A stretch of 64,000 nt of DNA from NCBI GenBank assembly GCA_965209055.1, contig OZ242374.1, forward strand, positions 2,112,001 through 2,176,000, written 5' to 3'. Positions within the stretch are counted from its first letter, which is position 1, and each line of letters begins with the position of its first letter. Below the pieces are notes generated by a model. It was not told the DNA's origin and ran no database searches. It saw only the letters and a list, made by a program, of their open reading frames with translations. The DNA comes from Acidobacteriota bacterium. GTDB lineage: Bacteria; Acidobacteriota; UBA6911; RPQK01; JAJDTT01. Positions 35,338 to 56,990 of the stretch are shown piece by piece. The translations under genes were made by a program, and so were the position numbers.

Positions 35338-35582
35338 TACGACTCGCCACCACTTCCGAAAGCCCGGAGGATGTCCTCAGGAAGCGGCTCGAAGAAACTG
35401 TCAGGCACCTTCAGGCCCGGATCGGTACCGATCGGACGTTTCTTCATGGACAGCTTTGGAAGGGGTCGGATCTCGGCAATGGGCACATTGCGTCGACACA
35501 GGACCACCGTCTCACCCCGTTCGACGCTCTGGAGGTACTCTGAGAGACGGGCTTTCGCCTGCGCGATGTTTGCCTTGATCAT
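35337..35582 (-). CDS. Phd/YefM-family antitoxin
   Basis: NIAQAKARLSEYLQSVERGETVVLCRRNVPIAEIRP...FFEPLPED. Confidence 0.9.
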   Translation of the reverse strand: MIKANIAQAKARLSEYLQSVERGETVVLCRRNVPIAEIRPLPKLSMKKRPIGTDPGLKVPDSFFEPLPEDILRAFGSGGES

Positions 35583-35595
35583 GGTCAAATACTAG

Positions 35596-41926: not shown

Positions 41927-42016
41927 TGGGAGTCCTCCGTACACGGCCGGAACAGGCCTAACGAAAGGGATTGACTTCTTCTTGCTTTTCCCAGCAATTG
42001 TAGTCACAAAGATCAC

Positions 42017-42349
42017 ATGGGTGAACCACTCGTCGTTGGGATCCGGGAGTTCAAGGCACGGTTGGGGACTTATCTCCGCTGGGTACGCGAAGGGCGCATC
42101 CTGACCATCACCGATCGGGGCCGGCCGGTGGCGGAAGTGACGCCGATCGAGTTTGACGGTGGTTCTGTGGAAGCACGTCTGGCTCGTTTACGGAGGCAGG
42201 GCCTGGTGACGGGCCAAGCGAAACCGATGCCGCCGATCCCCAAGCCGATCATGGGAAGAGGCCGGAGCTTCTCTGAGGCTGTCAGCGAAGATCGGGAGGA
42301 TCGAGTCCTCAGCGCATCAGGTAGTCCCAGCGGGCAGCGGCTCCCTTGA
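42017..42349 (+). CDS. Phd/YefM-family antitoxin, orphan
   Basis: VGIREFKARLGTYLRWVREGRILTITDRGRPVAEVTP...SEAVSEDREDR; no toxin follows. Confidence 0.85.
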   Translation: MGEPLVVGIREFKARLGTYLRWVREGRILTITDRGRPVAEVTPIEFDGGSVEARLARLRRQGLVTGQAKPMPPIPKPIMGRGRSFSEAVSEDREDRVLSASGSPSGQRLP

Positions 42350-44324
42350 CGACAAGGGGAACGTCCTGCGACAGCAGGTATCCCTGATCCATGAGCTGGA
42401 GGGCAACTTCGGTGACCCGGCCCAGGTACTCCTCCCGGCTATCGTACCTCTCCCGGATGGAGAGCCGGGGGTCACCCGCTTCGAGACGCTCCTCCTTGCT
42501 CCGGGCGAAGGGAATGTAGGAGCCGCGGAAGCTGCAGATTTCCGTCGGCGGACCCTGGCCGGGGCCGAAGAGGTTCCATCCCGCATACGTGGCCAGGGGG
42601 ACCGCCACTTCCGGAAGGCGGATCCCCGCCAGCTCGTTCCCGTCGGCGTCGACCTTGGGCACCAGAATCGGAAAGGGAGCGCCGACTCGCGGCGGCTGGA
42701 AGCTCACAATGCCCTCCGAACGAAACCGGGGGCCGTAATCCACCCGGTAGGCACGGTGGATTCTGGTGGGCACCCGGATGCCCGGCAACCGGGGAAACTC
42801 GAACTCGGGAAACGGGACCAGAGTGGCCTCGTCCAAGCGGGGATACCGGCTCGGCGGCGGAGTCGCTCCGTCGGCCACCCACCGATCCAGGGCCAGGAGC
42901 AGGGCGCGCATCGCCCAGCGGAAATCCAGCGGATTGTCCAGTTGCTGCCCCCTGGATCGGGAAGGAGGGAAGGGTCCCACGCCATGCTGGCTGCCCGTAA
43001 AATGGTAGTGGCGAACCTGGTCCATGAACTCCACGTCCCGGGTTCCGTCCACGGTGGTGTGAATCAGGGAAGAGGCGCGGCCCCAATATTCGTAGGAGGA
43101 GTTGGTGTAGAAGATCTTGGGGCAAAGCTCGGGCCGGGCGAAGTGGATGAGCAGTCCGTCGGTCTTCCCCGTCACCGGGTCGGTCTGGGCCCTGCCGGTG
43201 AAGGGGAAGATGTCGGTGGGATAGAAGAAGTTGGAGAAGGGCTGGGCGTCCCGCGACGGCTGTGCGAACCGGTGGTTGAAGCTGCCCCGACCGGCCCCCG
43301 CCACGTGCGGTATGAGTCCGTCGAAGACCCGCCGGTTCTGCTCGTCCGCGTTGAAACCCTGGTAGAGGAAGGTCCGCAGGAAGCGTCCGCTCTGCGAACT
43401 CCCGTACCCCAGGGCGCGGTTCAGGGCGGTCCGTGGAATGGACAGGTCCGGATCGCCTTCGTACTTGAGGTGGGAGATCATGTCTCGCACGGCCGTCGGG
43501 CCCAGTCCCACCAGGGGAGGATCCTGGCCCCGGTAGATCACTTCGTAAATCCGGCCGGGCTCGAATCCCCCTTCCAGAACGACATGAGTCGGGTCGGGCA
43601 CCGCCTGTCCCCCCTCCATTCGGGCGAACCGCCAGCGGTTCCTGGGAACGGGCTGGCGCTCACCCTCGACCTCATCCCGGACCGTCATGGAGTTCTCGGG
43701 GGCGTCGGGATCGGACACGGGGTACGGAATGTGGTTGCGGTCCGAGAGAATGTGGTGGTCGGCGCGGGTCTTGACCACGAAGTCGCATCGCACCAGGCCG
43801 GTGATGGGACGGTCCGGGTCCCGGGCGACGGCCGGGTAGACGCGAATGTTCCCCGACCGGTGGGGCGGGTCCAGTTGCCATCCCAGCCACAGCAGAGTGA
43901 AGCCCTGCCGCATGAGGAAGCCGTCTCCGAACTCCTCGCGGGTTTTGGGTGTCGGGCTGTACCGGGCCAGGTTGAAGTGTGCCACCAGGGCCTTCCCGCC
44001 CCGGTTGGAGACCTCGTAGAAAATGGCGCCGTTCCCTCGCTCCACCTGGACCGGTTTCAGCAGCGCCAGATCGGAGGAGAACTCAACCTCGCCCTGCTCG
44101 TTCCGGGGCGCCTTCCCGATGTCGGTGATGATCCGATTGGGTCCCACTTCGGGATCGACGGCGAAATGCACCCGTCCCGTGATTATTTCGTAGGGACCCA
44201 CGAGGGGATAGGGCTCGCCATCCAGGATCGGATTCCGTTCGTGGATCTCCACCCGGACGACGCGCGCCCACAGAGGGCTCAACGAAAAAAGTAGCGAAGA
44301 GATGACGATGAACAGGCGTGCCAT
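42309..44324 (-). CDS. Secreted alpha/beta-hydrolase-domain protein, copy 1
   Basis: EVSNRG, GWQ.D, YGSSQSGRFLR, YEYWGR, VDADGNE.AGIRLP; signal peptide. Confidence 0.85.
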   Translation of the reverse strand: MARLFIVISSLLFSLSPLWARVVRVEIHERNPILDGEPYPLVGPYEIITGRVHFAVDPEVGPNRIITDIGKAPRNEQGEVEFSSDLALLKPVQVERGNGAIFYEVSNRGGKALVAHFNLARYSPTPKTREEFGDGFLMRQGFTLLWLGWQLDPPHRSGNIRVYPAVARDPDRPITGLVRCDFVVKTRADHHILSDRNHIPYPVSDPDAPENSMTVRDEVEGERQPVPRNRWRFARMEGGQAVPDPTHVVLEGGFEPGRIYEVIYRGQDPPLVGLGPTAVRDMISHLKYEGDPDLSIPRTALNRALGYGSSQSGRFLRTFLYQGFNADEQNRRVFDGLIPHVAGAGRGSFNHRFAQPSRDAQPFSNFFYPTDIFPFTGRAQTDPVTGKTDGLLIHFARPELCPKIFYTNSSYEYWGRASSLIHTTVDGTRDVEFMDQVRHYHFTGSQHGVGPFPPSRSRGQQLDNPLDFRWAMRALLLALDRWVADGATPPPSRYPRLDEATLVPFPEFEFPRLPGIRVPTRIHRAYRVDYGPRFRSEGIVSFQPPRVGAPFPILVPKVDADGNELAGIRLPEVAVPLATYAGWNLFGPGQGPPTEICSFRGSYIPFARSKEERLEAGDPRLSIRERYDSREEYLGRVTEVALQLMDQGYLLSQDVPLVVKGAAARWDYLMR

Positions 44325-44331
44325 GCCGGCC

Positions 44332-44361
44332 ATTAGAGTCGGAGCGGGAGATGGGAGTCAA
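44332..44361 (-). promoter_or_regulatory. Probably leaderless promoter of hydrolase copy 1
   Basis: TTGACT-N18-TCTAAT-N7-ATG(44324); same layout in copy 2. Confidence 0.7.
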
Positions 44362-44430
44362 GAAGCCGGGAGGGTGACCTGACTTGATGGTCCGGCTGGA
44401 CGGGGTCCCTCGTTACCGGCGCCAGTATCG

Positions 44431-44466
44431 ATCGCTCAGTTCCGTCTTTGCGGGACGCTGAGCGAT
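44431..44466. terminator. Long intergenic hairpin (possible terminator)
   Basis: ATCGCTCAG...CTGAGCGAT arms with further internal pairing; no U tract. Confidence 0.3.
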
Positions 44467-44581
44467 TGCGCCGGGACCCGGCGCGACGAGCAGCCGAAAA
44501 TTCTCTTGCCGTACTCGTTCCGCGTCCTGGTGGCCACGGGTCTGCTTGGTCAGTCAAGCGTGCCCATGGCGGAAAAAGACG

Positions 44582-45007
44582 TCAGCCGAGCACAGTTTCG
44601 GCCACATCCTCTGCCTTGTTCACCAACATGATCGCAAGGACTATGACAATGACAACAGCAATCAAGAGCACCAGGATCATTCCCATGCCGCCGGCTCTGA
44701 ACTGCTCGTTCACCTGCCTGCTTTGCCGGGCCAGCTCCGCCAAAGTCTCGTTGTCCAGCGTGGGGACTGCAACCGCGACTTTCTCCAGGTCGAAAAGGTG
44801 CCCCACGTGATCTTGAACCCCCTGGTCACGGAGCAGCGTCTGGACTTCGCGAATGTTGCCGGCGCGTTCGGCCGTTAGTGCCGCGACCTGGTCCCGCAAC
44901 TCCTCGATCGATACCAGGTGAACCGTTTTCTGTGCCGGGAGGGGACCGGCCTGCAAGCTGGTATGTGAGACCAAGAGGACCGAAAGGAACAAGGATATGG
45001 CTTTCAC
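44582..45007 (-). CDS. PA2779-like exported protein with C-terminal membrane helix
   Basis: GGAGG RBS + GTG, signal peptide, VPTLDNETLAELA...AGG + hydrophobic tail. Confidence 0.65.
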   Translation of the reverse strand: MKAISLFLSVLLVSHTSLQAGPLPAQKTVHLVSIEELRDQVAALTAERAGNIREVQTLLRDQGVQDHVGHLFDLEKVAVAVPTLDNETLAELARQSRQVNEQFRAGGMGMILVLLIAVVIVIVLAIMLVNKAEDVAETVLG

Positions 45008-45228
45008 TGTCTACCTCCTCTGCATCTGAATCGCTGGCAGTATAACGCCACGGAAGTGAAACATCGTGCGCGGGTTGAGATCGAGGGCCGGGATAGGCCT
45101 CGAGATCCGGATCCAGTGATCCCAACCGGCCGATTTTTTCGCCCGGGTCCTCGTGTCCGGATGGGCTGATTGACACTCTCGGTTCAGATGAGCTATGCAT
45201 TCTTCACGTTCCCCCATTGAGAGCCGAA

Positions 45229-45600
45229 ATGAACTGGAAGCATGTCAGCATCAAGGCCTTGGTTGTCATTGGCGCGATCATGGTCTGCGGATCTGTGGCG
45301 GGCATGGTGTTGGCAAACTATATGATCCACCTTTTCGGCACGAAGCTCATTTATTCGCAGGGACTCGGCGTTGCTATGTGGGGCACGATTTGGGGGGTGA
45401 TCTGGCTCGTGGATACCCATCACCTCTCCATGTCCCGAAAGGCGCTGTCTGCAGCCGATCCCGCGACTGCGAAAAAACATCTGGGACGAATCCGAATCCT
45501 GCGTAGCAAGGAGGAGTCGATCAGGCGGGAGCATGGCTTGATACGTCCCTATTCCGACCCGGGCCGGCCCCTGGGCCTGGACTCTCGCAAGGGGGAATAA
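45229..45600 (+). CDS. Small membrane protein (two hydrophobic segments)
   Basis: Two hydrophobic stretches followed by a basic tail; no family recognised. Confidence 0.5.
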   Translation: MNWKHVSIKALVVIGAIMVCGSVAGMVLANYMIHLFGTKLIYSQGLGVAMWGTIWGVIWLVDTHHLSMSRKALSAADPATAKKHLGRIRILRSKEESIRREHGLIRPYSDPGRPLGLDSRKGE

Positions 45601-45683
45601 TGGGAGGCGGTCGCATGCAAGAATCTTGGCGCCCCTCTGAGAGAAGGTGGAATCGGCAACGCGATCAAGAGCATCGAGGTGTG

Positions 45684-46298
45684 ATGGCAGACGTGTCCCG
45701 TGGCTTGGTGCTCCTGCTGTTGTTCGGCGCGGCGAGTGCCTGGGTTCACACTCAGGATCGCTGGAGCGTCGCGGAAGAGGAGATCGTGCGCCTGGCTCCC
45801 GCGGCATTCGAAAAGGTTCCGGCGGCGATCCGGAAGGGACTTTCCGACCTGGGTTGCTCGATCCCTCAGGCCTGGGACAACGCATCAGGCAAGAACGATC
45901 ACGGCTGCTCGATCCCTCCACCCCGAGGCAGCGACCAGCCGCACAACGTCGTCTCAGGCGAATTCATGGAAGCCGGCCAGACGCTGTGGGCCGCGCTCTG
46001 CTCTCGCAATCGAACATCAGCCATCATTGTGATCGATGAAAACGGGCGAGTTCGGGCCGAACTCGCATCGGCCCCGGACCGGAGTTATCTGCAAGGTATC
46101 GGGTGCGGAAAGATCGCCTATTCGCGCTGGTTGAGCCCGGCCGGGGCTGATTTCATCCTGTCCGTCTACCATGCCTACGGAGGACGGAAGCCACCGCCGA
46201 TCGATCATCAAGGTATCGACAATGCCTTTCTCGAAAAGGCCTCCACGGTGCACTACTTCCACGAAGGAAAGTGGCTGCGGTTGGCTGGTGCGGACTGA
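45684..46298 (+). CDS. Hypothetical secreted protein
   Basis: GAGGT RBS, signal peptide MADVSRGLVLLLLFGAASA; several Cys. Confidence 0.65.
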   Translation: MADVSRGLVLLLLFGAASAWVHTQDRWSVAEEEIVRLAPAAFEKVPAAIRKGLSDLGCSIPQAWDNASGKNDHGCSIPPPRGSDQPHNVVSGEFMEAGQTLWAALCSRNRTSAIIVIDENGRVRAELASAPDRSYLQGIGCGKIAYSRWLSPAGADFILSVYHAYGGRKPPPIDHQGIDNAFLEKASTVHYFHEGKWLRLAGAD

Positions 46299-46532
46299 GT
46301 CGCCGAGACATCCCCTTTCCGGTCCCTTCGATCTGGCCGGGCCTTCCATTTGAAATCACGACACGCCGGGACGAACCTTGGACATCGCGTGCCGGCGATT
46401 CTCTTCCGGATTTCGCACGGGAGAAGGACAGCCACGTTTTCGGTCCCTCTTGCGCTGTTATACAGATTCTCAACTGCGGGCTAGATTCGATTTTTGTTCC
46501 GGAATCGAAATTTTTTTGGACATTGCTTAGTG

Positions 46533-46567
46533 GTACGACCGGATCTGGCGTATCTGCTTGCTAGACT
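46533..46567 (+). promoter_or_regulatory. DriD-type operator plus extended -10 upstream of the AAA+ ATPase
   Basis: GTACGAC-N7-GGCGTAT (46533-46553) then TGcTAGACT (46559-46567); GGAGG RBS at 46587. Confidence 0.7.
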
Positions 46568-46597
46568 CCCTCGACTCGTCGTTGGCGGAGGCAAGCG

Positions 46598-48688
46598 ATG
46601 CAGAACATCTATGAACGGCGGCTGATCCTGTCATACCTCTCGAACCTGGTTTCGCGCTGTCATCACAGTTCCCGTGCGGCCCGCAAACTGGCCGATTGCG
46701 TCGCCGAGTGGGGTGACCTGCTGGTGATCGTGGATTGCTCCGGCAGACGGACTGCAGAAAGACTCTGCACCTGTTCCCACGGAAAACTGTCAGCAACACG
46801 TTGGCAGCAGATAAAGGACATCCTCAAGGGCCAGCAAGAGGTGACGAGACGTGTACGCGGCGACCGGACGGCGGTCCGGCTCCGGCGCCTCGGGCGCGAA
46901 ATGCAGCTTTCTCGAACGGATATCGCGATTCTCGAATTTCTGCTGCGCTACGAATCGAAACCGCCCTTCGAGTCCTTCATCGACGACATTGGCCTTGCAT
47001 ACTACCGAACGTGGCGGAGTGCCTTTTCGATCGGTTGCCGTCCACTGATGGATTTTCTCGGTTTGTCGTCCGGCTCGTGTCGGGCCCGTTTTGCTACGGA
47101 CGCACCGCTCGTGAAGTCGGGCCTTTTGTCCATCACCTCCGATGGGACAATTCAACCCATCGCCCGATTGCATCGGCTCGTTTATACGCCTGGGAACGCC
47201 AGGATCGATGCGCGGAGGCTACTGTTTGACGTGGGTCCTCCGAGCGAACTTGAGTGGTCGGATTTCGAACATGTCGCTGAAAGCCGAGACCACGCCGAAC
47301 GCTTGATCAAGGGTGCGCTTCAGGCTCGCGAACCGGGCGTCAACATCTTGATCTACGGTTCGCCGGGGACCGGCAAGACCCAGTTCTGTAGAACCCTGGC
47401 CCGTCGGCTGAACGTGAAGCTCTACAGCATAGGCGAAATGGACGAGGGTGGGGACGAGCCCACTCGTGTCGAAAGGCTTCAGGAACTGCGGCTGGCGCAA
47501 CGCCTGCTGTCAAGCGGCCAAGATTCGATTCTGTTGTTCGACGAAATGGAAGATCTACTTTCCAATCCGGTTTCCAGGAGCGCGACGTTCATTATGAAGA
47601 TCAATCGGCGTCCGACTCGGCGCAATTGGCGTCAGGCATATGGTTCGAAGGTATTCATGAACCGGTTGCTGGAGCAGAATGCGGTGCCTACATTGTGGAC
47701 CTCCAACTCCGCCCGGCAGACCTGTCCCACTCTGCTCCGTCGTATGATGTTCGCCTTGGAAATGCGCCAACCCTCGCCTCGGGTCCGGGCCCGGATCTGG
47801 GCTCGTCAGCTCGCCAACCACGGTATCGAAGCGAGTCGCGAGGAGGCGAACTCTCTGGCCAGGGAGTACGACGTGCCGCCGGGTGTGGCAGCCGGAGTCA
47901 CCGCCGCCGCCCGACTTGTTGATGGAGGCGATATCGCGACGGTCCACTGCGGAGTGCGCAGCCTGTCGCGGCTGCTGGTGGGCGAAACCCCTCCTCAACA
48001 GGTACCGCACGAGTTTGAGCCCGCCCTGATTAATGCGGATATCGATCCGGCAGTGCTTGCCGATCGCTTGGCCGAGCGCGGGGCGAGGCGGGTTTCTCTT
48101 TGTCTGAATGGACCGCCCGGCACCGGGAAGAGCGCGTATGTCCGCTACTTGGCCGAGCGGGTTGGATTGGAGGTCGTGCAAAAACGTGCGTCCGACCTGA
48201 TGTCCATGTGGGTGGGGGCCACCGAGAAGCAAATCGCCACCGCCTTCGCCGAGGCGCGCGACGCAAGACAATTTCTCGTATTCGATGAAGCCGACTCGCT
48301 GCTCGCCGACCGGAGGTTTGCTCAGCGCTCATGGGAGGTGAGTCAAGTCAACGAAATGCTGACCTGGATGGAAAGTCATCCCCTGCCGTTCGCCTGCACC
48401 ACCAACTTCAGCGAGCACCTTGACCCTGCGACCTTGCGACGTTTTGATTTCAAGATCGCGCTTGACTACCTGCGTCCCAGGCAGGCGATGGCGGCCTTCC
48501 GCACCTTCTTCGGCCTCGCGCCGCCGCCGGAAATCACAGGTCTCGCCAACCTCACGCCGGGCGATTTTTCCGGGGTTCGCCGGCAGGCTGAGATACTCGA
48601 TCAGTTGGAAGACCCGGAGGTCCTCTACGGCATGCTGCGCCAGGAGTGCGAAGCCAAACCAGATCGTCCGACGGCGGTTGGTTTCTGA
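46598..48688 (+). CDS. Tandem (two-module) AAA+ ATPase
   Basis: GSPGTGKT / LLFDEME / LLRRM and GPPGTGKS / pore loop MWVG / LVFDEAD / TTNF..HLDPATLRRF. Confidence 0.93.
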   Translation: MQNIYERRLILSYLSNLVSRCHHSSRAARKLADCVAEWGDLLVIVDCSGRRTAERLCTCSHGKLSATRWQQIKDILKGQQEVTRRVRGDRTAVRLRRLGREMQLSRTDIAILEFLLRYESKPPFESFIDDIGLAYYRTWRSAFSIGCRPLMDFLGLSSGSCRARFATDAPLVKSGLLSITSDGTIQPIARLHRLVYTPGNARIDARRLLFDVGPPSELEWSDFEHVAESRDHAERLIKGALQAREPGVNILIYGSPGTGKTQFCRTLARRLNVKLYSIGEMDEGGDEPTRVERLQELRLAQRLLSSGQDSILLFDEMEDLLSNPVSRSATFIMKINRRPTRRNWRQAYGSKVFMNRLLEQNAVPTLWTSNSARQTCPTLLRRMMFALEMRQPSPRVRARIWARQLANHGIEASREEANSLAREYDVPPGVAAGVTAAARLVDGGDIATVHCGVRSLSRLLVGETPPQQVPHEFEPALINADIDPAVLADRLAERGARRVSLCLNGPPGTGKSAYVRYLAERVGLEVVQKRASDLMSMWVGATEKQIATAFAEARDARQFLVFDEADSLLADRRFAQRSWEVSQVNEMLTWMESHPLPFACTTNFSEHLDPATLRRFDFKIALDYLRPRQAMAAFRTFFGLAPPPEITGLANLTPGDFSGVRRQAEILDQLEDPEVLYGMLRQECEAKPDRPTAVGF

Positions 48689-48776
48689 AGCTCATGGGGT
48701 GCGAGCGACCTTCCCGGACGAGAGTCACGGGTCGGGCAAGGCCGAACGTCCGGGGATAGACAAAGGAATCGGCGGA

Positions 48777-49835
48777 ATGCGTTACCAACGGGTTATTGAC
48801 ATTGTGCGCTTGGCGATTCAGCTCCAGGGAACGTTGGGCGGATTGACGTTGAATGGTATTTCCGAAAGGTTCCGCGTCAGCCGCCGTACGGCGGAACGGA
48901 TGCGCAATGCAGTCGATGCAGCGTTTGGTCCGCTTCAGTTGGTGGACAGAGACGACAGGCGGCGCCACTGGCAGCTCCGATCCAGCGCCCTATGCCGGTT
49001 TATCCGAATTTCAGCGGAGGAGTTGGCGGAAATCGATTCCGCAGCTAAGTCTCTGGACCGGACGGGGCTCGTCGAACGGGCTGTCATGCTCCGGGAGCTG
49101 GCGGAAAAGCTCCGCGCCCTGCGGCGACCCCTCGCCGCAGAGGAGTTCGATGCCGACCTGGAGGTGCTTATGCGGGCTGAAGGACTCGCCATGCGCCCCG
49201 GCCCCAGACCTCACGTCGAGAAAGGGCTGCTTTCGTTGCTGCGCGATGCCATCAAGGCGAGACGCGCGGTGGAATTTGACTACTTCTCACAGTCGACGGA
49301 ACGGTGCAGTTTGCAGCGGGTCCAGCCCTACGGCGTCCTCTACGGAAACCGGGCGTTCCTGGTCGCATGGACGGATTGGGCAGACGACATGCGGCTTTGG
49401 CGGCTCGGGAACATCAGTAATGTCCGCGCGACCGGCGAAACCTTTGAGCGTGACCGGTCATTCGATTTGCGGCGCTACGCAGAGCGCTCGTTTGGCACCT
49501 TCCAAGAATCACCCGTCGAGGTGGTCTTGCGTTTCGACGCCGGGGTGGCCGGCGATGCAGCCGCATTCCTGTTTCATCCGAGCCAGTCCCTCACCAGGCA
49601 CCGTGATGGCTCGCTGACAGTGCGTTTCAAAGCCGGCGGCCTCGACGAGATGTGCTGGCATCTCTTCACTTGGGGCGACAGCGTCACGGTGGAAAACCCG
49701 GCCAGCTTGCGCCGCCGCCTGGCCCAGATGTGCGCTTCTCTCGCGGCTCACCATGATGCGCGGAGCGCCCTAAGAGACGCTCCGGCGACTGATCCGGACC
49801 TTCCCACAATTCCCAAATTTAGGAGAGAGCCATGA
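48777..49835 (+). CDS. driD: HTH-WYL-WCX transcriptional regulator, DriD-like
   Basis: GLTL...VSRRTAERMRNAV, AEELA, RPGPRP, PYGVLYG..AFLVA, SFG, FHPSQ, DGSLTVRFKAGG..EMCWHLFTWGDSV match my recollection of Caulobacter DriD. Confidence 0.85.
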   Translation: MRYQRVIDIVRLAIQLQGTLGGLTLNGISERFRVSRRTAERMRNAVDAAFGPLQLVDRDDRRRHWQLRSSALCRFIRISAEELAEIDSAAKSLDRTGLVERAVMLRELAEKLRALRRPLAAEEFDADLEVLMRAEGLAMRPGPRPHVEKGLLSLLRDAIKARRAVEFDYFSQSTERCSLQRVQPYGVLYGNRAFLVAWTDWADDMRLWRLGNISNVRATGETFERDRSFDLRRYAERSFGTFQESPVEVVLRFDAGVAGDAAAFLFHPSQSLTRHRDGSLTVRFKAGGLDEMCWHLFTWGDSVTVENPASLRRRLAQMCASLAAHHDARSALRDAPATDPDLPTIPKFRREP

Positions 49836-50905
49836 ATTCGAAGACTCCCAATCTTTTCCACTATGCCACCAAGGAACTCTCTCAGGACGCATTGATCTGC
49901 TGGTTGATCGAATGGGCTGGACAACCGCCAGGCACCAAGAAGGCGGACGAAGAAATGCGCCGTTGTGGACTCCGGTTCGTAAACGCCTTGCTTAATCATA
50001 GGAGAGACGAAGCAGATCCCATCGAGTTGAAGAGTGTGTCCAAGGTCGAAATCCTTCAGCAAGAGCGAGGCATCGACGTTCTTGCGCGTATCAATAAACG
50101 ACATGTGCTTTTGATTGAGGACAAGACCGACACGAAGGATCACAGCAACCAACTGTCGAGGTATTACCACGATGTAGTGGAGGGTCGCACCACGTTCGGC
50201 AAAGTGAAGGAGAGAGATCTCTATCCAGTCTATTTCAAGACAGGCAATCAGCCTCTCGCAGATGATCGCCGCATTGAGGAAATTGAAGACTGTACCTACA
50301 AAGTATTCAATCGAAAGGATTTTCTGACTGTCCTCAATGACTGCAAGGGTCGCAATCCGATTCTCTTGGATTTCCGGAAATATCTTCAGGAACTGGAGGA
50401 CGACACCAACGCCTACGCGGGATGGACCAGATCCCAGGGCGGTTCCCGGCTGCCCTGGGAAGGATTCTGTCGGTGCCTCGAATACGAATGGGACAGCTCC
50501 GGGCGCTGGATCTGGTGGGGCTATGTCTCAAATCGTTCAGGTGGGTTTCACTGTTTCTCATGGGCTCCGTCGGACGATACCGAGCAGTACCTTCAAATCG
50601 AGGCGCGCCTTGAGTCTGAAACGGTGGCCGAAGCCAGACTTTGCTTCAAGGTTGACGCTGGCGAAACACCCCGTGATCAGTGGCAAGACTTGAAATGGTC
50701 CTGGCACGAGCGGGTTGTAGAGGCAGGTAGAGGACGAGTGGTTAAGCCCCACCGAATGAGGGTTGGAAACACTATGACTGTTGGTTGGTGGAAAGAGAAT
50801 TGGATGGCCTTCGGCAAGGACAATAGGCTGGACTTGGCCGGCACCATCGAGAACCTGAAGCAAGCAGAGGAGGTATTGCAAGCCGCCATTTCATCGAACT
50901 CGTGA
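49832..50905 (+). CDS. PD-(D/E)XK nuclease (PDDEXK_4-like)
   Basis: NLF....KELSQDALICWL, IDVL...LLIEDK, NQLSRY; ATGA overlap with the WYL gene; visibly more AT-rich. Confidence 0.82.
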   Translation: MNSKTPNLFHYATKELSQDALICWLIEWAGQPPGTKKADEEMRRCGLRFVNALLNHRRDEADPIELKSVSKVEILQQERGIDVLARINKRHVLLIEDKTDTKDHSNQLSRYYHDVVEGRTTFGKVKERDLYPVYFKTGNQPLADDRRIEEIEDCTYKVFNRKDFLTVLNDCKGRNPILLDFRKYLQELEDDTNAYAGWTRSQGGSRLPWEGFCRCLEYEWDSSGRWIWWGYVSNRSGGFHCFSWAPSDDTEQYLQIEARLESETVAEARLCFKVDAGETPRDQWQDLKWSWHERVVEAGRGRVVKPHRMRVGNTMTVGWWKENWMAFGKDNRLDLAGTIENLKQAEEVLQAAISSNS

Positions 50906-50935
50906 GACTTCAGTTCGGACCGAATCATGGCGCCA

Positions 50936-51048
50936 GGAGCGGCGATTGCTAATTGCCGAACTCCAGAGTAACGCTGGGGCAAGAAGGGAATGGGCGATTG
51001 GAAATCGCCCTTCCAAATCGCCCTTCCAAATCGCCCTTCCAATTCGCC
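50936..51048. repeat. Inverted pair of REP-like hairpins with 13-bp tandem triplication
   Basis: GGAGCGGCGATTGCTAATTGCCG ... GGGCGATTGGAAATCGCCCTTCC; AAATCGCCCTTCC x3 at 51002-51040. Confidence 0.75.
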
Positions 51049-51179
51049 ACCATGGCTCTTGCCCCGAACCGGAGCCCTCCGGTAGCATTTTCCGTATCAA
51101 TACTTTTCGAGTCTCGGCAGTCACGTCCCCCGTCCGGTCCGGCCGCTGACCGGATTTTTCCATTGAGGAGTCGCCAGTC

Positions 51180-52466
51180 ATGAGTCAAGCATCCATTCAC
51201 CGCCGTTCCTTTCTGACCCGTTCGGCCGGAGCCGGAGCGGGCTTGGCCCTGGCCGGCTTTCCCGGCATCGTCAGCGCTCGCAACGTCAACAATCGCCTCA
51301 ACCTGGGAATCGTGGGGCCGGGAGGGCGCGGCACCGGACGACTGAAGCGGTTCTTTCAAATGAACCGGCGGTTCAACGCCCGGCTCGTCGCCGTCTGCGA
51401 CCTCTGGAACTACCGCCGCGAAAATGCCGTGGAGCTGGCAAAGGCCGAGCAGGGCTACGCCCCCAAGGCTTACCGCCATCACGAAGAGATTCTGGCCGAT
51501 GCCGAGGTGGACGCCCTGATCATCGCCACCCCCGACCACGCCCACGCTCAGATCCTGAAGTTGGCCGCCGACTCAGGCAAGGACGCCTACTGCGAAAAAC
51601 CCATGGCCAACGTGCTGGAGGAGGCCAACGCGGCCCTGGACGCGGTGCGCAAATCCGACACCATCGTCCAGATCGGGACCCAGAGACGTGCCAATCCCAA
51701 GTATCGCCAGGCCAGCCGCATGATTGCCGAAGGGTTCATCGGCGACGTGGTCAAGGCCGACTTCCATTGGAGCAAATACAGTCCTTATCGTTGGGCCCGG
51801 AAGGAAAAGGACATCCTGATGGCCAAGGAGGACGATCTGGACTGGAACACCTGGCTCATGGGACGCCCCCACCGGCCCTTCGACCCCCGGATCTTTCGCT
51901 GTTTCCGGCTCTTCAAGGACTTTTCCAGCGGCATCATCGACCAGTGGATGAGCCACGGCATCGACTTGGCGCACATGCTCACGGGTGTTACCTACCCCTC
52001 GACCGTCGTGGCCCATGGCGGGATCTACCAGTGGAAGGACTACCGGGAGAATCCGGACACTCAGGAGATCACCCTGGAGTACAAGAAGGGTGACCGGAAG
52101 TTCCTGACCGTCTACTCCACCAACTGGATCAACGGGTACGGCAGCGGCACCCGGGTCCACGGGACCCTGGGAAGTTTCAAGGGCGAGGCCATTTCCTACC
52201 GTGACGACGACTGGCATTTCACCGGCAAAGGGGTGAAGGCCGACGGCAGAGTGGCGGACATAGTTCCGGTTGAAGGGGACCCCGGAGAGACCGACCACAT
52301 GGCCAACTGGCTGGACGCCGTCCGCAGTCGAGATTCAAAGCGGCTGTATTGTCCCGTCGAGGCCGGCTACGGTCATTCCATCGCCTGCATCATGGCGACC
52401 GATTCCTACTGGAGCGGGAAACGAATGGTCTTCGACCCGGTGAAGCGAACCATCCGGGCCGGATAG
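51180..52466 (+). CDS. Gfo/Idh/MocA oxidoreductase with Tat signal
   Basis: RRSFL, GIVGPGGRG, IATPDHAH, YCEKP, QIGTQRR. Confidence 0.92.
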   Translation: MSQASIHRRSFLTRSAGAGAGLALAGFPGIVSARNVNNRLNLGIVGPGGRGTGRLKRFFQMNRRFNARLVAVCDLWNYRRENAVELAKAEQGYAPKAYRHHEEILADAEVDALIIATPDHAHAQILKLAADSGKDAYCEKPMANVLEEANAALDAVRKSDTIVQIGTQRRANPKYRQASRMIAEGFIGDVVKADFHWSKYSPYRWARKEKDILMAKEDDLDWNTWLMGRPHRPFDPRIFRCFRLFKDFSSGIIDQWMSHGIDLAHMLTGVTYPSTVVAHGGIYQWKDYRENPDTQEITLEYKKGDRKFLTVYSTNWINGYGSGTRVHGTLGSFKGEAISYRDDDWHFTGKGVKADGRVADIVPVEGDPGETDHMANWLDAVRSRDSKRLYCPVEAGYGHSIACIMATDSYWSGKRMVFDPVKRTIRAG

Positions 52467-52496
52467 GAGGGGACTTTCCTCTCCCCCCTGCTCCCC

Positions 52497-52552
52497 GGAG
52501 TCGGCGGCTGGAAGCCGCCGCTCCAGCCGCCGCTCCAGCCGCCGCTCCAGCC
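52497..52552. repeat. REP-like hairpin with 12-bp tandem triplication
   Basis: GGCGGCTGGAAGCCGCCGCTCC; AGCCGCCGCTCC x3 at 52513-52548. Confidence 0.75.
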
Positions 52553-52570
52553 GGCGGGGGAGCTTTCCTC

Positions 52571-54916
52571 TTACTTCTCCGACATCCAATTCCGGTGGCG
52601 CAGGTCGTATTCCCGATCCCCAATGAGGCTGGGAAAGCTCCAAATCTCACGCTGGATCTCTCCCGACAGGATCTTCGACCGCTCCAGCAGCGACAGCAAC
52701 TGGTAGACGCGGGACTCGACCAGCGGGAAATAGGCCCCGATGTTGTAGGAGCCCTGGGCGCCGGGCCTGGTGTTCAAGACTGGCCAGACTCCTTTCTCGT
52801 TCTGTCGAGCCAGGATTTCCCCCAACTCCCCACCGGCAAACTGGGAAACGGACTCGGCCAGTTGGGCCCGGGTCATGCGGACGGGCACGGGCCGCGGTCC
52901 GTCCCGGCGCTTTCGTAGTTCCGGCTCCAGCCGCTGCCCATCGGGCCTCTTCATGAAAACGGACCAGGGAAATTCCTCTTCCGAGATCTGATCCGGGTTG
53001 GCCCACATCGCCGAACCGGTCTTCAGGAAGGCCACCCGATCCTGAGGGTTGTCCAGGTAATAGGTCTTCCAATTCTTGAGGTCCACGGCGATGGGCCGGC
53101 CGGTCCTGTGGTCCACCAGTCGGCTCCGCATCGGCACTCTCTCTCCGCCCACGTTCACCTCAATCAGAGCGCTCTTCTCCCAGTCGAGGTAACGGGCGAC
53201 CGGATCCAGGTATTTCCGGTCACGGGTCAGGTCATAAAGGAAGAAGAGGTTCTCACAGGCGCTGACGCTGGACCCGGGAGAAAGGCCCGGAGGGTGGTAG
53301 ACGCGGGACCAGACCGGCTGGTTCCGTCCGTCGTAGGCCAGGGCCCAGCCGTAGGTCGGGGGACCCAACTGGGCCGCGAGATGCCAATCGCCGTTGCGAA
53401 CGATGGCGTCCCGGTACTTGTCCAAGCCGGTCAGGTGATGGGCCAACTGCATCACCCGAAGCTGGTTGCGCTGGTTCCCGTTGTCGAACTCGGCCCCGTG
53501 GGGGTCCTGGTTGCGGTTCTCGCTGCGGCCTTCCTTCAGGTTGTAGGTGTAGCCCCAACTGCCGTTGGGGTTCTGGGCCTTGAGGATGAAGTCGGCCGAG
53601 CGCCGGAAGCCCTCCAGCCACCGCTCCTCCCGCGTCACCAGGTAGAGCCGGGCCATGAAGAGGGCGGCCTGGCTCTGGCGGCCGTCCTGAAAAGTGGGAT
53701 AGTCGCGGTGGACGGTCCGCCGGTGGGAAGTGAGGACCTCTCGCCGGGGTGTCGGCCGACCGCCGGTGTGACGGTCGTAATGGTTGACCCAGTAGCCCTC
53801 CGGCTGCTGGGCCGACAGCAGCCATTCTCCCGCCTTCCGGGCCACTTCCAGGTAGCGCCGGTCCCCCAGCACCTGATACGCGTACAGGAAGAGTCGTCCC
53901 GCTCCCGGCGTGCCGTTCCTGCCGTGGGCCAGCTCCATGAAACGGTCCAGGCCGGGATGGAAGTAGGTGCGGTAGCTGGTTTCCCCCGGCAGCAGGTGAG
54001 GCCAGGCGTAGAGGATGGCGCTCCAGGCTCCGTCGATTTGGAGCCGGCTGATGAAATCCAGGTGGCGGCAGACGGCGTCCGTGATCCGCACCGCCGCCTT
54101 CTCCGGCAGGTGCGTTTCCCGGCCCCGAAGCGCCAGCATCTCCTGGACCGTCACGTCGCTGATCTTCAACTCGTCGAAGCGCGCCCCGGCAGTCTGCAGG
54201 ACGACCCGGGGATCGAGGCCCTCTCGGCCCACTCCCCCATAGTAGGAAGCTCCCAGAAACAGAATGTGGAAGCGGTTCACCTCCAGGGGCTTGCCCACCG
54301 AGAGACTCCGGAGCCGGCCATCCAGGGCCAGCCAGAGCCGCCCCTTCCGGTCGTCCCAGGAAAACAGCAGATGGTGCCAGTCCTCGGCCTCCAGATCGGA
54401 AACCGGAAAGTCGAGGGAGCCCACCACCTCGCCGTCTCCTTTCCAGTGGCGGCCGGCCCAGGAGAGCCGCAACCGGTTGTCGCTCGTTTTCCACAGTTCC
54501 AGGTCGCGGCGCACGGCGGCCGCTGAGAAGAGGCAGTGCCTGAGCCCGTCCCGCCAGATGTTCCGTCCCGGTTTGCTTCGGACCCAAAACTGGACGGTCC
54601 CTCGGTCCGGTCGCATGTTGCCGTGGGCCCGAAGGTTGATCTGGGCTCCCGGGATGTCGATCTCGATCCCGCCGCCGACCCTGCCGGGAACCGAAGCGTC
54701 GTAGTTGCGTCCGGCCGCGCCCATCCCGTCTCGCTCGTAGTCGGGCTGGATGCCGCCGGGTGCGTCGAAGCGGGCCAAGAGGGTGGTGTGCCGGTCCCGC
54801 TCGACGGGGGCGCTCACCCAATCGGGAAGATCGGTCGTGGTTTGAACCGGCCGGCCGCCGGCCGGAAAAGTGGAAGCCAGGAGGAGAGTTGCCGCCAGAA
54901 GATTCTTCGTCGAAAT
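52571..54916 (-). CDS. Secreted protein with LamG-like and alpha/alpha-barrel (pectate lyase-like) domains
   Basis: GTVQFWV, WHHLLFSWD, FDELKISD, then repeated AQ...G.W motifs. Open frame with a signal peptide extends from GTG 54817 up to ATT 54916. Confidence 0.7.
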   Translation of the reverse strand: MSTKNLLAATLLLASTFPAGGRPVQTTTDLPDWVSAPVERDRHTTLLARFDAPGGIQPDYERDGMGAAGRNYDASVPGRVGGGIEIDIPGAQINLRAHGNMRPDRGTVQFWVRSKPGRNIWRDGLRHCLFSAAAVRRDLELWKTSDNRLRLSWAGRHWKGDGEVVGSLDFPVSDLEAEDWHHLLFSWDDRKGRLWLALDGRLRSLSVGKPLEVNRFHILFLGASYYGGVGREGLDPRVVLQTAGARFDELKISDVTVQEMLALRGRETHLPEKAAVRITDAVCRHLDFISRLQIDGAWSAILYAWPHLLPGETSYRTYFHPGLDRFMELAHGRNGTPGAGRLFLYAYQVLGDRRYLEVARKAGEWLLSAQQPEGYWVNHYDRHTGGRPTPRREVLTSHRRTVHRDYPTFQDGRQSQAALFMARLYLVTREERWLEGFRRSADFILKAQNPNGSWGYTYNLKEGRSENRNQDPHGAEFDNGNQRNQLRVMQLAHHLTGLDKYRDAIVRNGDWHLAAQLGPPTYGWALAYDGRNQPVWSRVYHPPGLSPGSSVSACENLFFLYDLTRDRKYLDPVARYLDWEKSALIEVNVGGERVPMRSRLVDHRTGRPIAVDLKNWKTYYLDNPQDRVAFLKTGSAMWANPDQISEEEFPWSVFMKRPDGQRLEPELRKRRDGPRPVPVRMTRAQLAESVSQFAGGELGEILARQNEKGVWPVLNTRPGAQGSYNIGAYFPLVESRVYQLLSLLERSKILSGEIQREIWSFPSLIGDREYDLRHRNWMSEK

Positions 54917-54937: not shown

Positions 54938-56953
54938 TCAGCGCATCAGATAATCCCAGCGTGCAGCCGCTCCCTTGACGACTTGGGGAACATCCTGGGA
55001 CAGGAGGTATCCTTGATCCAGGAGCGCAAGGGCGACTGCGGCGACGCGGCCCAGGTACTCTTCCCGGCTCCCGTACCTTTCCTGGATGGAAAGGCGCGGG
55101 TCACCCGCCTCGAGTCGCTCCCGCTTGGTCCGGGCGAAGGGAATCCAGGAGCCGCGAAAGCTGCAAATTTCCGTCGGCGGCCCCCTTCCAGGGCCGAAGA
55201 GGTTCCATCCCGTGTAAGTGGCCAGGGGCACCGCTACTTCCGGAAGGCGAATCCCCGCCAACTCGTTGCCGTCGGCGTCGACCTTGGGGACCAGGATCGG
55301 AAAGGGTTCGCCGACTCGAGGCGGCTGGATGCTCACGATGCCCTGGGAACGAAACCGGGGACCGTAATTCACCCGGTACGCCCGGTGGATTCGGGTGGGC
55401 GCGCGAACTCCCGGCAAACGGGGAAAGTCGAACTCGGGAAAGGGGACCAGTGTGTCCTGGTCCAAGCGCGGGTAGCGGCTGGGGGGCGGGATCGTGCCCT
55501 CCGCCACCCATCGGTCCAGGGCCAGGAGCAGGGCGCGCATGGTCCAGCGAATCTCCAGCGGATTGTTGAGTTGTTCTCCCGTCGTCCGGTCGGGAGGGAA
55601 GCGTCCGGGGGAGTGTTGGCTGCCGGTGAAGAGATAGTGGCGAACCTGATCCATCGGCTCCACGTCCCCGGTTCCGTCCACGGTGGTGTGAATCAGGGAA
55701 GAGGCGCGGCCCCAATACTCGTAGGACGAGTTGGTGTAGAAGATCTTGGGGCTCAGCTCAGGCCGGGCAAAGTGGATGAGCAGCCCGTCGGTCCGGCCGG
55801 TCACCGGGTCGGTCTGGGCCCTACCGGTGAAGGGAAAGATGTCGGTGGGATAGAAGAAGTTGGCGAAGGGCTGGGCGTCCCGGGACGGCTGGGCGAAGCG
55901 GTGGTTGAAGCTGCCCCGTCCCGCACCCGCCACGTGCGGCATGAGTCCGTCGAAGACCCGCCGGTTCTGCTCGTCCTCGTTGAAACCGTGGTAGAGGAAG
56001 GTCCGCAGGAACCGGCCGCTCTGGGAGCTGCCGTACCCCAGGGCCCGGTTCAGGGCGCCCCGGGGAATGGAGAGCACCGGATCGTCCTCGTACTTGAGGT
56101 GGGAGATCATGTCCCGCACCGCCGTGGGGCCCAGTCCTACCAGGGGCGGGTCCTGGGCCCGGTAGACCACTTCGTAGATCCTGTGGGGCTCGAATCCGCC
56201 TTCCAGCAGGACGTGGGTCGGGTCGGGCACCGGCCGCCCCCCCTCCATTCGGGCGAATCTCCAGCGCTCGCGGGGAATCGTCTGGCGCTCGCCCTCGACG
56301 GCATCCCGGACCGTCATGGAATTCTCGGGGTCGTCGGGATCGGACACGGGATATGGAATATGCCTGCGGTCCGAGAGCAGGCGGTGTTCGACGTGGGTCT
56401 TGGGCACGAAGTCGCACCTCACCAGTCCGGTGATGGGGCCTGCCGGATCCCGGGCGACGGCCGGATACACACGAACGTTTCCGGGAGTGTGCGGCGGGTC
56501 CAATTGCCAACCCAGCCAGAGGAGCGTAAAACCGCGGCGCATGAGAAATCCGTCCCCGAAATCCTCGCGGACCTTGGGATCGCGCCTGAACCGGGCCAGG
56601 CTGAAGAAGCCCAGCATGTTCTTCCCGCCCCGGTTGGAGACCTCGTAGAGCAGGGCGCCGTTGCCTCGCTCCACCCGGACCGGCTTCATCATCACGAAAT
56701 CGGAGGAGAACTCCACCTCGCCCCGATCATTGCGAGGGGCTTTCCGGATGTCGGTGATGATCCGGTTGGGAACCAGTTCGGGATCGACGGCGAAGTGCAC
56801 ACGTCCAGTGATCCTTTCGTAGGGGCCCACGAGGGGATAGGGCTCACCCTCCAGCAACGGATCCCTCTCCTGGATCTCCACCCGCACGACGCGCGCCCAG
56901 AGCGGACTCAGGAAGATCAGGAATGAGGAGATGGCAATGAAGAGGCGGGACAC
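54938..56953 (-). CDS. Secreted alpha/beta-hydrolase-domain protein, copy 2
   Basis: Colinear, equal-length paralog of 42309-44324 with the same motifs. Confidence 0.85.
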   Translation of the reverse strand: MSRLFIAISSFLIFLSPLWARVVRVEIQERDPLLEGEPYPLVGPYERITGRVHFAVDPELVPNRIITDIRKAPRNDRGEVEFSSDFVMMKPVRVERGNGALLYEVSNRGGKNMLGFFSLARFRRDPKVREDFGDGFLMRRGFTLLWLGWQLDPPHTPGNVRVYPAVARDPAGPITGLVRCDFVPKTHVEHRLLSDRRHIPYPVSDPDDPENSMTVRDAVEGERQTIPRERWRFARMEGGRPVPDPTHVLLEGGFEPHRIYEVVYRAQDPPLVGLGPTAVRDMISHLKYEDDPVLSIPRGALNRALGYGSSQSGRFLRTFLYHGFNEDEQNRRVFDGLMPHVAGAGRGSFNHRFAQPSRDAQPFANFFYPTDIFPFTGRAQTDPVTGRTDGLLIHFARPELSPKIFYTNSSYEYWGRASSLIHTTVDGTGDVEPMDQVRHYLFTGSQHSPGRFPPDRTTGEQLNNPLEIRWTMRALLLALDRWVAEGTIPPPSRYPRLDQDTLVPFPEFDFPRLPGVRAPTRIHRAYRVNYGPRFRSQGIVSIQPPRVGEPFPILVPKVDADGNELAGIRLPEVAVPLATYTGWNLFGPGRGPPTEICSFRGSWIPFARTKRERLEAGDPRLSIQERYGSREEYLGRVAAVALALLDQGYLLSQDVPQVVKGAAARWDYLMR

Positions 56954-56960
56954 ACGAATC

Positions 56961-56990
56961 ATTAGAGTCCCGGCGGGAGACCGGAGTCAA
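56961..56990 (-). promoter_or_regulatory. Probably leaderless promoter of hydrolase copy 2
   Basis: TTGACT-N18-TCTAAT-N7-GTG(56953). Confidence 0.7.

Follow-up and report, generated by a model that had tools for sequence, protein, structure and literature searches.

A recurrent bacterial operon pairing a tandem AAA+ ATPase with a DriD-type WYL regulator and variable cargo

Bacterial regulators with a WYL domain are known in two settings: as activators of the DNA damage response (DriD, PafBC) and as repressors beside phage-defense systems (BrxR, CapW). In Caulobacter crescentus, DriD is a damage-response activator of didA, recJ, dnaG and the endonuclease gene bapE (PMC13004042, PMC10853764). 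PafBC of Actinobacteria is a damage-response activator that is genetically linked to an AAA+ unfoldase-protease system (PMC9186387). BrxR and CapW have been described as repressors that stand beside variable defense genes, and CapW binds single-stranded DNA (ssDNA) (PMC9122601, PMC11662680, PMC9122588). Here we analyzed a 64,000-nucleotide (nt) stretch from an Acidobacteriota bacterium (contig OZ242374.1, positions 2,112,001 to 2,176,000), which we call the window. At positions 46533-50905 it carries genes for a tandem AAA+ ATPase, a WYL regulator and a PD-(D/E)XK nuclease. The locus points to a third arrangement, spread over many phyla, in which a DriD-type activator lies behind a two-ring AAA+ unfoldase with its own operator and exchangeable cargo of nucleases or candidate defense genes.

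A preliminary description of the locus had proposed three intact, co-oriented genes, and all three are intact open reading frames (ORFs) on the + strand: the ATPase gene (46598-48688, 696 amino acids [aa]) and the nuclease gene (49832-50905, 357 aa), and between them the WYL gene (48777-49835, 352 aa); its longest ORF begins at 48420, and we took the ATG at 48777, which has AAGGA ahead of it, as the real start. Pfam identified two AAA modules in the ATPase (AAA, expectation [E] value 6.8e-34), WYL (2.3e-13) and WCX (7e-15) in the regulator, both above their cut-offs, and PDDEXK_4 (PF14281; E 3.2e-07, 30.9 bits against a cut-off of 22.3) in the nuclease. Our reading, to which we give about an even chance, is that these genes form an ssDNA-inducible, self-activating operon that would co-express an unfoldase and a nuclease, with a leaning towards defense against phage or other foreign DNA.

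The DriD-type regulator and its predicted operator

The regulator had been called a DriD-like WYL sensor, and our searches bore this out. Residues 1-322 of its 352 matched Caulobacter DriD in the PDB (9pfq/8tp8) at E ~3e-55, and PafC was a distant second (E 8.4e-09). The architecture, winged helix-turn-helix (wHTH), three-helix bundle (3HB), WYL and WCX, is that of a full-length DriD homologue. Its recognition helix, RRTAERMR (residues 36-43), shows no difference from that of DriD in the HMMER alignment; in DriD, two arginines of this helix, R37 and R41, read the conserved G and C of the site (PMC10853764). In this search, by sequence alone, there were only six PDB matches at E <= 0.01, all DriD chains and PafC, with no BrxR or CapW chain among them. 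We expect the protein to form a DriD-like homodimer and not a heterodimer of the PafB/PafC type.

DriD is activated by ssDNA, and the residues that contact this ligand have been named (PMC9186387). In DriD numbering, Y168, R204, W206 and R207 are kept in the window's protein, and Y192 and Y240 are each replaced by phenylalanine; at position 240, phenylalanine also occurs in DriD homologues (PMC9186387). Y169, F194, R206, W208, R209 and F242 of the window's protein are thus DriD contacts kept or conservatively replaced, whereas the contacts K202, R288 and R176/R178 are replaced or shifted (see the last section). By analogy with DriD, the ligand would be ssDNA.

The preliminary description had also noted an operator-like palindrome ahead of the ATPase gene, which we find to be a predicted DriD-type operator at a conserved position. 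The box, GTACGACCGGATCTGGCGTAT (46533-46553, without assigned strand, read directly), lies 65 nt before the ATPase ATG, has the core CGAC-N7-GGCG and fits CGNC-N7-GNCG; the published DriD consensus is ATACGAC-N7-GTCGTAT (PMC10853764). At the Caulobacter didA promoter, which is the promoter of the solved DriD-RNA polymerase complex, the site ATACGTCCGTTTCTGGCGCAT is followed after 6 nt by GCCAAGGT; Caulobacter -10 elements read GCtANAWC, and DriD sites stand at one fixed distance from the -10, in the place of the -35 (PMC13004042). In the window a -10-like element, GCTAGACT (46560-46567, + strand), follows 6 nt past the box. It emerged from an alignment of 49 loci on their boxes, in which a consensus GCTAG(nn)T begins 6 nt after the box, and it is probably the -10 element of the operon. 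Because this geometry is the same as that at didA, the analogy argues for activation rather than repression. A ribosome-binding site, GGAGG (46587-46591, + strand, read directly), ends 6 nt before the ATPase ATG at 46598.

We asked how often the box recurs in 84 loci, namely the window copy, three paralogues or relatives, and 80 ATPase loci from a scan of species-representative genomes; three of the 84 have less than 150 nt of upstream sequence. A box was counted if at least 14 of 21 positions matched the consensus ATACGTCCGAATCTGACGCAT. By this measure it precedes the ATPase gene in 60 of 84 loci, and in 49 of these it starts 58-72 nt ahead of the ATG. Even a distant ATPase locus (L101 in our numbering of loci; 31% identity) and a copy from IMG/VR (L178) have the box 61-64 nt upstream. 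A scan of the window's 6.08-Mb genome with a weight matrix built from related loci gave 27.5 for the window box, 32.3 for the box of a paralogous ATPase gene and 19.1 for the next best site. With only two strong boxes in the genome, the regulator looks local and dedicated to its own operons. Second boxes also occur near some neighboring genes, the cleanest of them 76 nt before an ADP-ribosylglycohydrolase fusion gene (L027). An operon that starts with a box in activator position and encodes its own DriD-type regulator should switch on with positive feedback when the ligand appears. We consider this regulatory logic the best-supported part of our reading.

Just ahead of the box, at 46486-46517, is an A/T-rich 7-bp inverted repeat (TTCGATT and AATCGAA, 10 nt apart) followed by a T-run. 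We considered the repeat (46486-46509) as an operator and rejected it, as it resembles instead a weak terminator of the upstream ORF's transcript.

The locus is thus like DriD of Caulobacter in its full-length regulator homology, its recognition helix, its CGNC-N7-GNCG box, the distance from the box to the -10-like element and most of the ssDNA-contact residues. It is unlike DriD in gene order. The operon starts with the gene of a tandem AAA+ ATPase, the regulator gene comes second, and the box is found ahead of the ATPase gene; in 68 of 69 alphaproteobacterial DriD homologues, the box lies ~17 nt before the regulator's own start (PMC10853764). The searched parts of the DriD literature do not mention an ATPase beside Caulobacter driD, and the sole gene beside it that could be checked, CCNA_01150, is a 348-bp hypothetical gene. 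Like PafBC, the regulator is a WYL protein of the damage-response activator type whose gene is linked to that of an AAA+ unfoldase. PafBC, however, is encoded by the Pup-proteasome locus, whereas the ATPase here is Cdc48-like and two-ringed, its N-domain is winged-helix-like, and the window neighbors scanned included neither a Pup ligase gene nor proteasome genes. The regulator resembles BrxR and CapW in its position beside variable defense-type genes and differs from these repressors, as they have been described, in that its closest relative is an activator and its promoter geometry is of the activator type.

The ATPase and its pairing with the regulator

The ATPase had been described as a tandem AAA+ protein with an aromatic pore loop in its second module, and the Walker motifs and the loop were confirmed. 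An N-terminal domain (residues 1-~232), helical and winged-helix-like in its model, is followed by D1 (Walker A 254-261, Walker B 312-319) and D2 (Walker A 505-512, Walker B 560-567), which carries the pore loop MWVG at 537-540. This aromatic pore loop is in D2, and by eye we saw none in D1. Across 12 diverse ATPase sequences, K260, D315/E316, R381/R382, K511, D563/E564 and R614/R615 are invariant, and by their position we read R381/R382 and R614/R615 as arginine fingers. Judged by the aromatic pore loop of D2, the protein is probably a substrate-threading remodeler or unfoldase.

In its two AAA modules the protein is like Cdc48/p97, VAT, NVL and Rix7. With phmmer, VAT, Cdc48 and p97 matched D2 at ~2e-20. 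Foldseek with the full ATPase model (predicted local distance difference test [pLDDT] 76.9) found NVL, p97, Cdc48, Rix7 and AFG2 as best matches at E ~1e-16. The D2 pore loop of p97, M-W-F-G, is a parallel to MWVG. The ATPase appears to differ from Cdc48 in its N-domain, which is modeled as helical and winged-helix-like, unlike the N-domain fold of Cdc48. A further difference is that its gene shares a damage-type operator with the gene of a transcription factor. When the N-domain was modeled (pLDDT 81), all 50 VIA matches listed were winged-helix proteins or domains, covering residues ~88-203 at Z 5.0-7.1, which is below the tool's stated level of certainty. No Cdc48 N-domain was among these 50, which does not thereby exclude a family that was not listed. 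Pfam WHD matched three of the four homologues that were scanned, though weakly (E 8e-4 to 3e-3), an Atlas search of the domain led to Pfam WHD in 11% of the members of one cluster, and Foldseek against the PDB gave nothing at E <= 0.001. We take the winged-helix-like fold of the modeled N-domain as a lead.

IetA of the IetAS system was considered as an identity for the ATPase and rejected. The D2 AAA core resembles IetA, with a partial match to the PADLOC IetA model (1.3e-25, profile ~111-254), but NCBIfam NF042959 (IteA_antiphage) gave 90.5 bits against a cut-off of 510, over profile positions 114-254 of 367. The IetAS protease partner was not among the neighbors scanned by Pfam.

A family search with the ATPase returned 1363 matches. 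The best 120 of these were mostly covered over the whole protein, had at least 57% identity and were mainly ~690-740 aa long (shortest 557, longest 890). A profile of the N-domain found 1374 cluster representatives, and none of the 150 listed was longer than 739 aa.

The 80 loci span Acidobacteriota, Gamma- and Alphaproteobacteria, Latescibacterota, Gemmatimonadota, Binatia, Thermodesulfobacteriota, Nitrospirae, Nitrospinaceae, Spirochaetia and others. Counting a WYL gene as cognate at 35% identity or more, we found it at most 400 bp downstream of the ATPase gene on the same strand in 47 of the 80, farther downstream with other genes inserted between in 6, and between two ATPase copies in 1. 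No cognate WYL gene was found in 26, of which six have less than 1.2 kb of downstream sequence and at least L082 has a more distant WYL-WCX protein. In the window the two genes are 88 nt apart. Over the 40 loci in which both genes are intact, pairwise identities of the ATPase and of the WYL protein correlate with r 0.95, a value that none of 999 permutations reached. At the level of sequence this shows co-inheritance, which in part reflects shared host ancestry and is not proof of interaction. Neighborhood analysis, which the preliminary description had proposed as a check, was thus positive for recurrence of an AAA+ and WYL pair with variable effectors. Its picture of the three genes as a fixed, self-contained circuit was not borne out: as judged from these genomes, the conserved unit is the ATPase with the WYL regulator, not the trio.

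The pair behaves as an accessory element that has spread horizontally. When we searched the DNA of window positions 41000-54000 against 31 related genomes, the flanks (41000-~45071 and ~50912-54000) matched congeners at 88-92%, and the block between them (~45073-50912) was missing from the syntenic site, which confirmed that it is accessory as had been proposed. It is also more AT-rich, as claimed: the GC content is 0.604 for the ATPase gene, 0.619 for the WYL gene and 0.524 for the nuclease gene, whereas two measured flanking genes have 0.655 and 0.622; at third codon positions it is 0.61-0.70 against 0.80-0.84. ATPase-WYL DNA matched elsewhere in G007, G004 (twice), G003 and the more distant G023 (our numbers for related genomes), and a second copy in the window's own genome matched at 78-82%. 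A protein search found the ATPase in 5 of the 31 genomes. Of the 9 genomes in the genus (the window's included) 4 have it, as does 1 of 16 elsewhere in the order, while it was found in none of the 6 from the sister genus. Several copies are present in some genomes, for example the window's (G000) and those with the contigs behind L042/L044 and L075/L077.

Stops or frameshifts interrupt 8 of 60 WYL genes and also several ATPase genes, though some may be assembly errors. Two loci of the window's genus have an inverted WYL gene in divergent orientation, an arrangement reminiscent of Caulobacter, where the driD promoter is divergent (PMC13004042). One of them is the paralogue in the window's genome (G000:C1:3892715-3896116; L011 6716-10117), where the divergent WYL gene lies ~50 bp from the box; its ATPase gene is intact (73% identity) and is directly followed by a 48-aa remnant of a nuclease C-terminus. 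In G004 (L010 7121-8281, the same place as L071), an IS605-type TnpB gene (OrfB_IS605 with a Cas12f1-like TNB) splits the ATPase at about residue 290-305.

The cassette does not seem typically phage-borne, because phage carriage is rare (one distant match in 50,697 phage records and six distant loci in IMG/VR). Cultured carriers include plasmids of Fuscovulum blasticum and Leisingera thetidis and genomes of Paracoccus, Roseovarius and Roseinatronobacter. Among sequencing runs, four contain the stretch nearly whole, all of them from one sample, and other runs contain small shares.

The tight ATPase-to-WYL order across phyla and the co-variation of the two proteins would also fit proteins that act on each other. 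The ATPase could be a feedback device that resets the switch by unfolding or stripping the ssDNA-bound WYL activator, or other DNA-bound regulators, so that cargo genes were the only outputs; the modeled winged-helix-like N-domain could anchor it to DNA or to the regulator. We think this very unlikely. Complex prediction for a WYL dimer with the ATPase N-domain scored 0.00 against a mark of 0.32, which gave no evidence of contact and speaks neither for nor against binding. Most loci lack cargo, so that the pair alone must have an output, and DriD apparently functions in Caulobacter with no ATPase of this sort. The idea is compatible with a self-activating operon and need not replace it.

The nuclease and other cargo

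The nuclease is tied to the operon by the ATGA overlap of the WYL stop and the nuclease start (49832-49835), which had been pointed out before and was confirmed; a Shine-Dalgarno sequence, AGGAGAG, lies just upstream. Downstream, a hairpin with a T-run (51132-51155, + strand; 8 pairs, 5 G-C) resembles a terminator, although the consensus scan returned 9 such sites against 4.7 expected and is weak evidence for it. In an alignment of 18 sequences drawn from a family of 763 relatives, the invariant residues are E15, Q18, D19, D82, E96 and K98, and conservation extends to the C-terminal half. The IEDK motif named in the preliminary description is present at residues 95-98. D82, E96 and K98 make up the D...E-x-K catalytic motif of PD-(D/E)XK nucleases, and the predicted activity is DNA cleavage. 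An Atlas search of the C-terminal domain (~200-357) gave unnamed clusters only, and a search against PDB sequences gave no match at E <= 1.

Of the named PADLOC families, PDC-S26, a single-gene candidate without tested function, matched the nuclease weakly and partially (E 8.6e-10, residues 63-115 against profile positions 87-140 of 397). The window's nuclease, with its match of ~54 residues, appears to be a more distant branch, whereas relatives at other ATPase-WYL loci are clear members of PDC-S26: L067 at full length (5.5e-36) and L013, L020, L050 and L089 at 1e-17 to 1e-29.

The nuclease differs from the pair in history. The window and the paralogous modules share DNA homology that starts at 46495-46534 and stops at 49764-49769. 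From where it ends, we conclude that a nuclease cassette (~49770-50912, GC 0.52) became attached to the WYL gene at its 3' end, which lengthened the WYL C-terminus by ~21 codons. In 401 genomes of the phylum the nuclease family was found only in the window's genus, where it is intact in the window, broken in G002 and fragmentary in G004 and in the paralogous locus of the window's genome; the sole DNA match among the 31 related genomes is one place in G002, at 70%. In L011 and L014, C-terminal remnants (48 aa and 73 aa) nevertheless come immediately behind the ATPase gene, which implies that the ATPase-nuclease neighborhood is old in the genus and that the nuclease was lost repeatedly.

The cassette boundary, the low GC content and the decay of the nuclease in G002, in G004 and in the paralogue of the window's genome would suit an independent one-gene element of the PDC-S26-like kind that landed behind the WYL gene by chance; the ATPase-WYL pair would then function on its own, with no functional coupling beyond read-through. 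Most ATPase-WYL loci lack a PDDEXK_4 gene, and 78 of 80 metagenome loci centered on the nuclease lack the ATPase. We nevertheless regard chance landing as improbable, since PDDEXK_4 genes have been inserted independently at different points of other ATPase loci: between the ATPase and WYL genes in L013, L089 and L100, and after the ATPase gene in L078. They also lie nearby in L020, L032, L050 and L067. L101 repeats the window's order with distant homologues (ATPase at 31% identity, WYL, nuclease), with the box 61 nt upstream. Moreover, the ATGA overlap and the lack of an own promoter tie expression of the window's nuclease to the WYL gene. WYL regulators are also repeated neighbors of the nuclease family: by clustering, a WYL-WCX regulator is next to the nuclease in 14 of the 80 nuclease-centered loci, and nine of nine members checked by Pfam were WYL plus WCX. 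A hitch-hiking nuclease would in any case be compatible with an inducible operon. As far as these sequences tell, the nuclease is swappable but recurrent cargo, and a later, GC-poorer insert.

Coinciding contig sizes (26210, 9555, 24038, 12324 and 4036827) suggest that five nuclease homologues lie on the same contigs as ATPase homologues. A DUF2779 gene stands directly beside the nuclease in 8 of the 80 nuclease-centered loci. In several metagenome loci, a protein of ~96 aa of the cREC_REC type (a receiver domain for cyclic-phosphate processing) is encoded between nuclease-family and WYL genes: L174 (1711-2001), L148, L159 and L175-L177, and some nuclease homologues are fused to Response_reg domains. 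In L067 a DUF1643 gene and, after it, the full-length PDC-S26-type PDDEXK_4 gene (5387-5986 and 3863-5377) are divergent from the ATPase gene, with a second DriD-type box 237 nt upstream of the DUF1643 start. A nuclease under a DriD-type activator also recalls BapE as described for Caulobacter (PMC13004042), although bapE is at a separate locus and not in the regulator's operon.

Other ATPase-WYL loci carry other genes. Our scan took in 123 co-oriented ORFs, placed either between the two genes of the pair or up to ~2.2 kb downstream, and 20 of them have nuclease or nuclease-helicase domains: DUF2779 (4), PDDEXK_1 (3), PDDEXK_4 (2), HNH (2), RNase_H_2 with an SF1 helicase (4), and one each of REase-ARP, RNase T, NERD-kinase, YhgA-like and PIN. 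DUF2779 is counted here as a nuclease by assumption, from a weak RNase_H_2 match. Further cargo domains are Fic, RES, Phd, AAA_21, DUF4143, ADP-ribosylglycohydrolase, Nmad3 and 5'-nucleotidase, and some of the ORFs are plainly housekeeping (sulfatase, ThiC, MFS, ABC). PADLOC found full-length PDC-M31A (2e-147) and PDC-M31B (2e-68) between the ATPase and WYL genes of L063, and strong matches to PDC-S01 (L048), PDC-S08 (L059), PDC-S70 (L066), DEDDh/PDC-S48 (L026), an NsnB-like protein (L078) and PDC-S26 (L089). On two Rhodobacterales plasmids the annotated, co-oriented order is AAA ATPase, WYL, ADP-ribosylglycohydrolase, (HEPN), PD-(D/E)XK and UvrD helicase.

The preliminary description had not recognized the locus as a named system, and PADLOC 2.0.0 indeed holds no match to it beyond the partial IetA and weak PDC-S26 similarities. 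Full-text literature searches, which covered neither subscription journals nor supplements, did not turn up an AAA+ ATPase-WYL/DriD operon. The single components, namely DriD-family regulators, Cdc48-like ATPases and PDDEXK_4 nucleases, are already known. What appears to be new, and is absent from PADLOC 2.0.0, is the fixed ATPase-DriD operon with a conserved promoter and a cargo slot.

Possible working and role, with neighboring features

We propose that a basal WYL dimer is present in the cell. ssDNA from phage replication, degradation of foreign DNA or chromosome damage would bind the WYL pocket, and the freed wHTH domains would bind the box at the -35 position and recruit RNA polymerase as at DriD promoters. 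The ATPase, further activator (as positive feedback) and the nuclease would then rise together, the nuclease being translated from the same message as the WYL gene. The nuclease would cut DNA, and the ATPase would remove or unfold a protein target.

Several findings weigh against this proposal. At the protein level, DriD K202 and R288 are each replaced by aspartate, and R176/R178 are shifted by one position. Strong boxes occur in the window's genome only at two ATPase promoters and no wider DriD-like regulon was seen there, the half-site pattern occurring 17 times against 9-27 expected under a Markov model; the two replaced residues and the lack of a visible genome-wide regulon are also differences from DriD. 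Nor is the nuclease an obligate partner: intact PDDEXK_4 genes number only 6 in the 80 ATPase loci, the ATPase is missing from 78 of 80 nuclease-centered loci, and the nuclease GC is 0.52, compared with 0.60-0.62 for the pair. A cognate WYL gene at the 35% threshold is lacking in 26 of the 80 ATPase loci. No RNA run was listed as containing the locus. PADLOC matches among the neighbors are mostly to untested "candidate" families, and many neighbors could plausibly act in repair (AddAB-like, exonuclease I-like, DnaB, RNase T).

The last point argues for a role other than immunity, that of a DNA damage response or repair module in which the DriD-like activator would sense ssDNA arising from damage and induce the ATPase; the ATPase would strip stalled or trapped proteins from DNA, and variable nucleases and helicases would process lesions or ends. 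The targets of DriD in Caulobacter and the link of PafBC to an unfoldase-protease system, both cited above, would suit such a module, as would neighbors such as AddAB-like PD-(D/E)XK and UvrD pairs, an exonuclease I-like gene, an RNase T family exonuclease, DnaB and DUF2779. One nuclease-family lineage also adjoins uvrB. A damage-response role fits the AddAB-like, ExoI-like and DnaB neighbors as well as a defense role does. However, the spread of the cassette is patchy, with the ATPase in 5 of 31 relatives and 4 of 9 genomes of the genus, the window's included. Paralogous copies are multiple, and some are broken by an insertion sequence or by stop codons. The locations include a variable island and plasmids, neighbors of toxin-antitoxin or PADLOC-candidate type occur (Fic, RES, HEPN, PDC-M31, PDC-S01, PDC-S70), and the window's genome shows no wider box regulon. 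Taken together, these traits are more typical of accessory conflict genes than of core repair. We therefore hold a pure repair module to be possible but rather doubtful.

The same set of traits (patchy occurrence, multiple decaying copies, island and plasmid sites, a cargo slot with nucleases, toxin-like genes, PADLOC candidates and no visible wider regulon) gives, in our view, a slight edge to an inducible module against phage or foreign DNA over a pure repair role. A bolder version is that the ATPase and its DriD-type activator are an undescribed, widespread mobile immune cassette: an ssDNA-triggered platform with positive feedback, in which the unfoldase would itself be an effector, aimed at proteins of phage or foreign DNA, and interchangeable effectors would be plugged in. 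PDDEXK_4/PDC-S26, PDC-M31, DUF2779, AddAB-like proteins, ADP-ribosylglycohydrolase, HEPN and Fic would be such plug-ins. We offer this version only tentatively and think it more probably wrong than right; if true, it would be a defense family run by a WYL activator rather than by a repressor. Should the inducible operon be confirmed, it would provide a testable link between ssDNA sensing and protein remodeling in bacteria. The 21-bp box with its -10 could then be used as a natural inducible promoter module, and the cargo slot as a guide to new effectors.

The genes flanking the block are ordinary metabolic ones (Abhydrolase_10, a GFO/IDH/MocA oxidoreductase and a pectate-lyase-like protein). 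A pair of Abhydrolase_10 paralogues of 674 aa each (42309-44333 and 54938-56962, ~84% DNA identity) flanks the region, and extra Abhydrolase_10 copies in congeners make for repetitive synteny in the neighborhood. Inside the variable block and upstream of the ATPase module, at 45217-46298, the + strand has two ORFs, of 127 and 232 aa, that neither Pfam nor PADLOC matched; the ~1.3-kb stretch that holds them recurs elsewhere in congeners at 84-89% identity, independently of the ATPase. A Phd/YefM-type antitoxin ORF (42017-42349, 110 aa) lies between two large genes. Farther upstream, at 34956-36623, a PIN-domain ORF (34956-35306) adjoins a DDE_Tnp_1 transposase gene (35655-36623) in a lower-GC patch, which is probably a small mobile or toxin-antitoxin insertion. 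On the other side, a 347-aa ORF (57047-58090) matches Pfam Beta-lactamase2 (E 1.4e-50) and stands next to DUF1501 and PSCyt/PSD1 genes.

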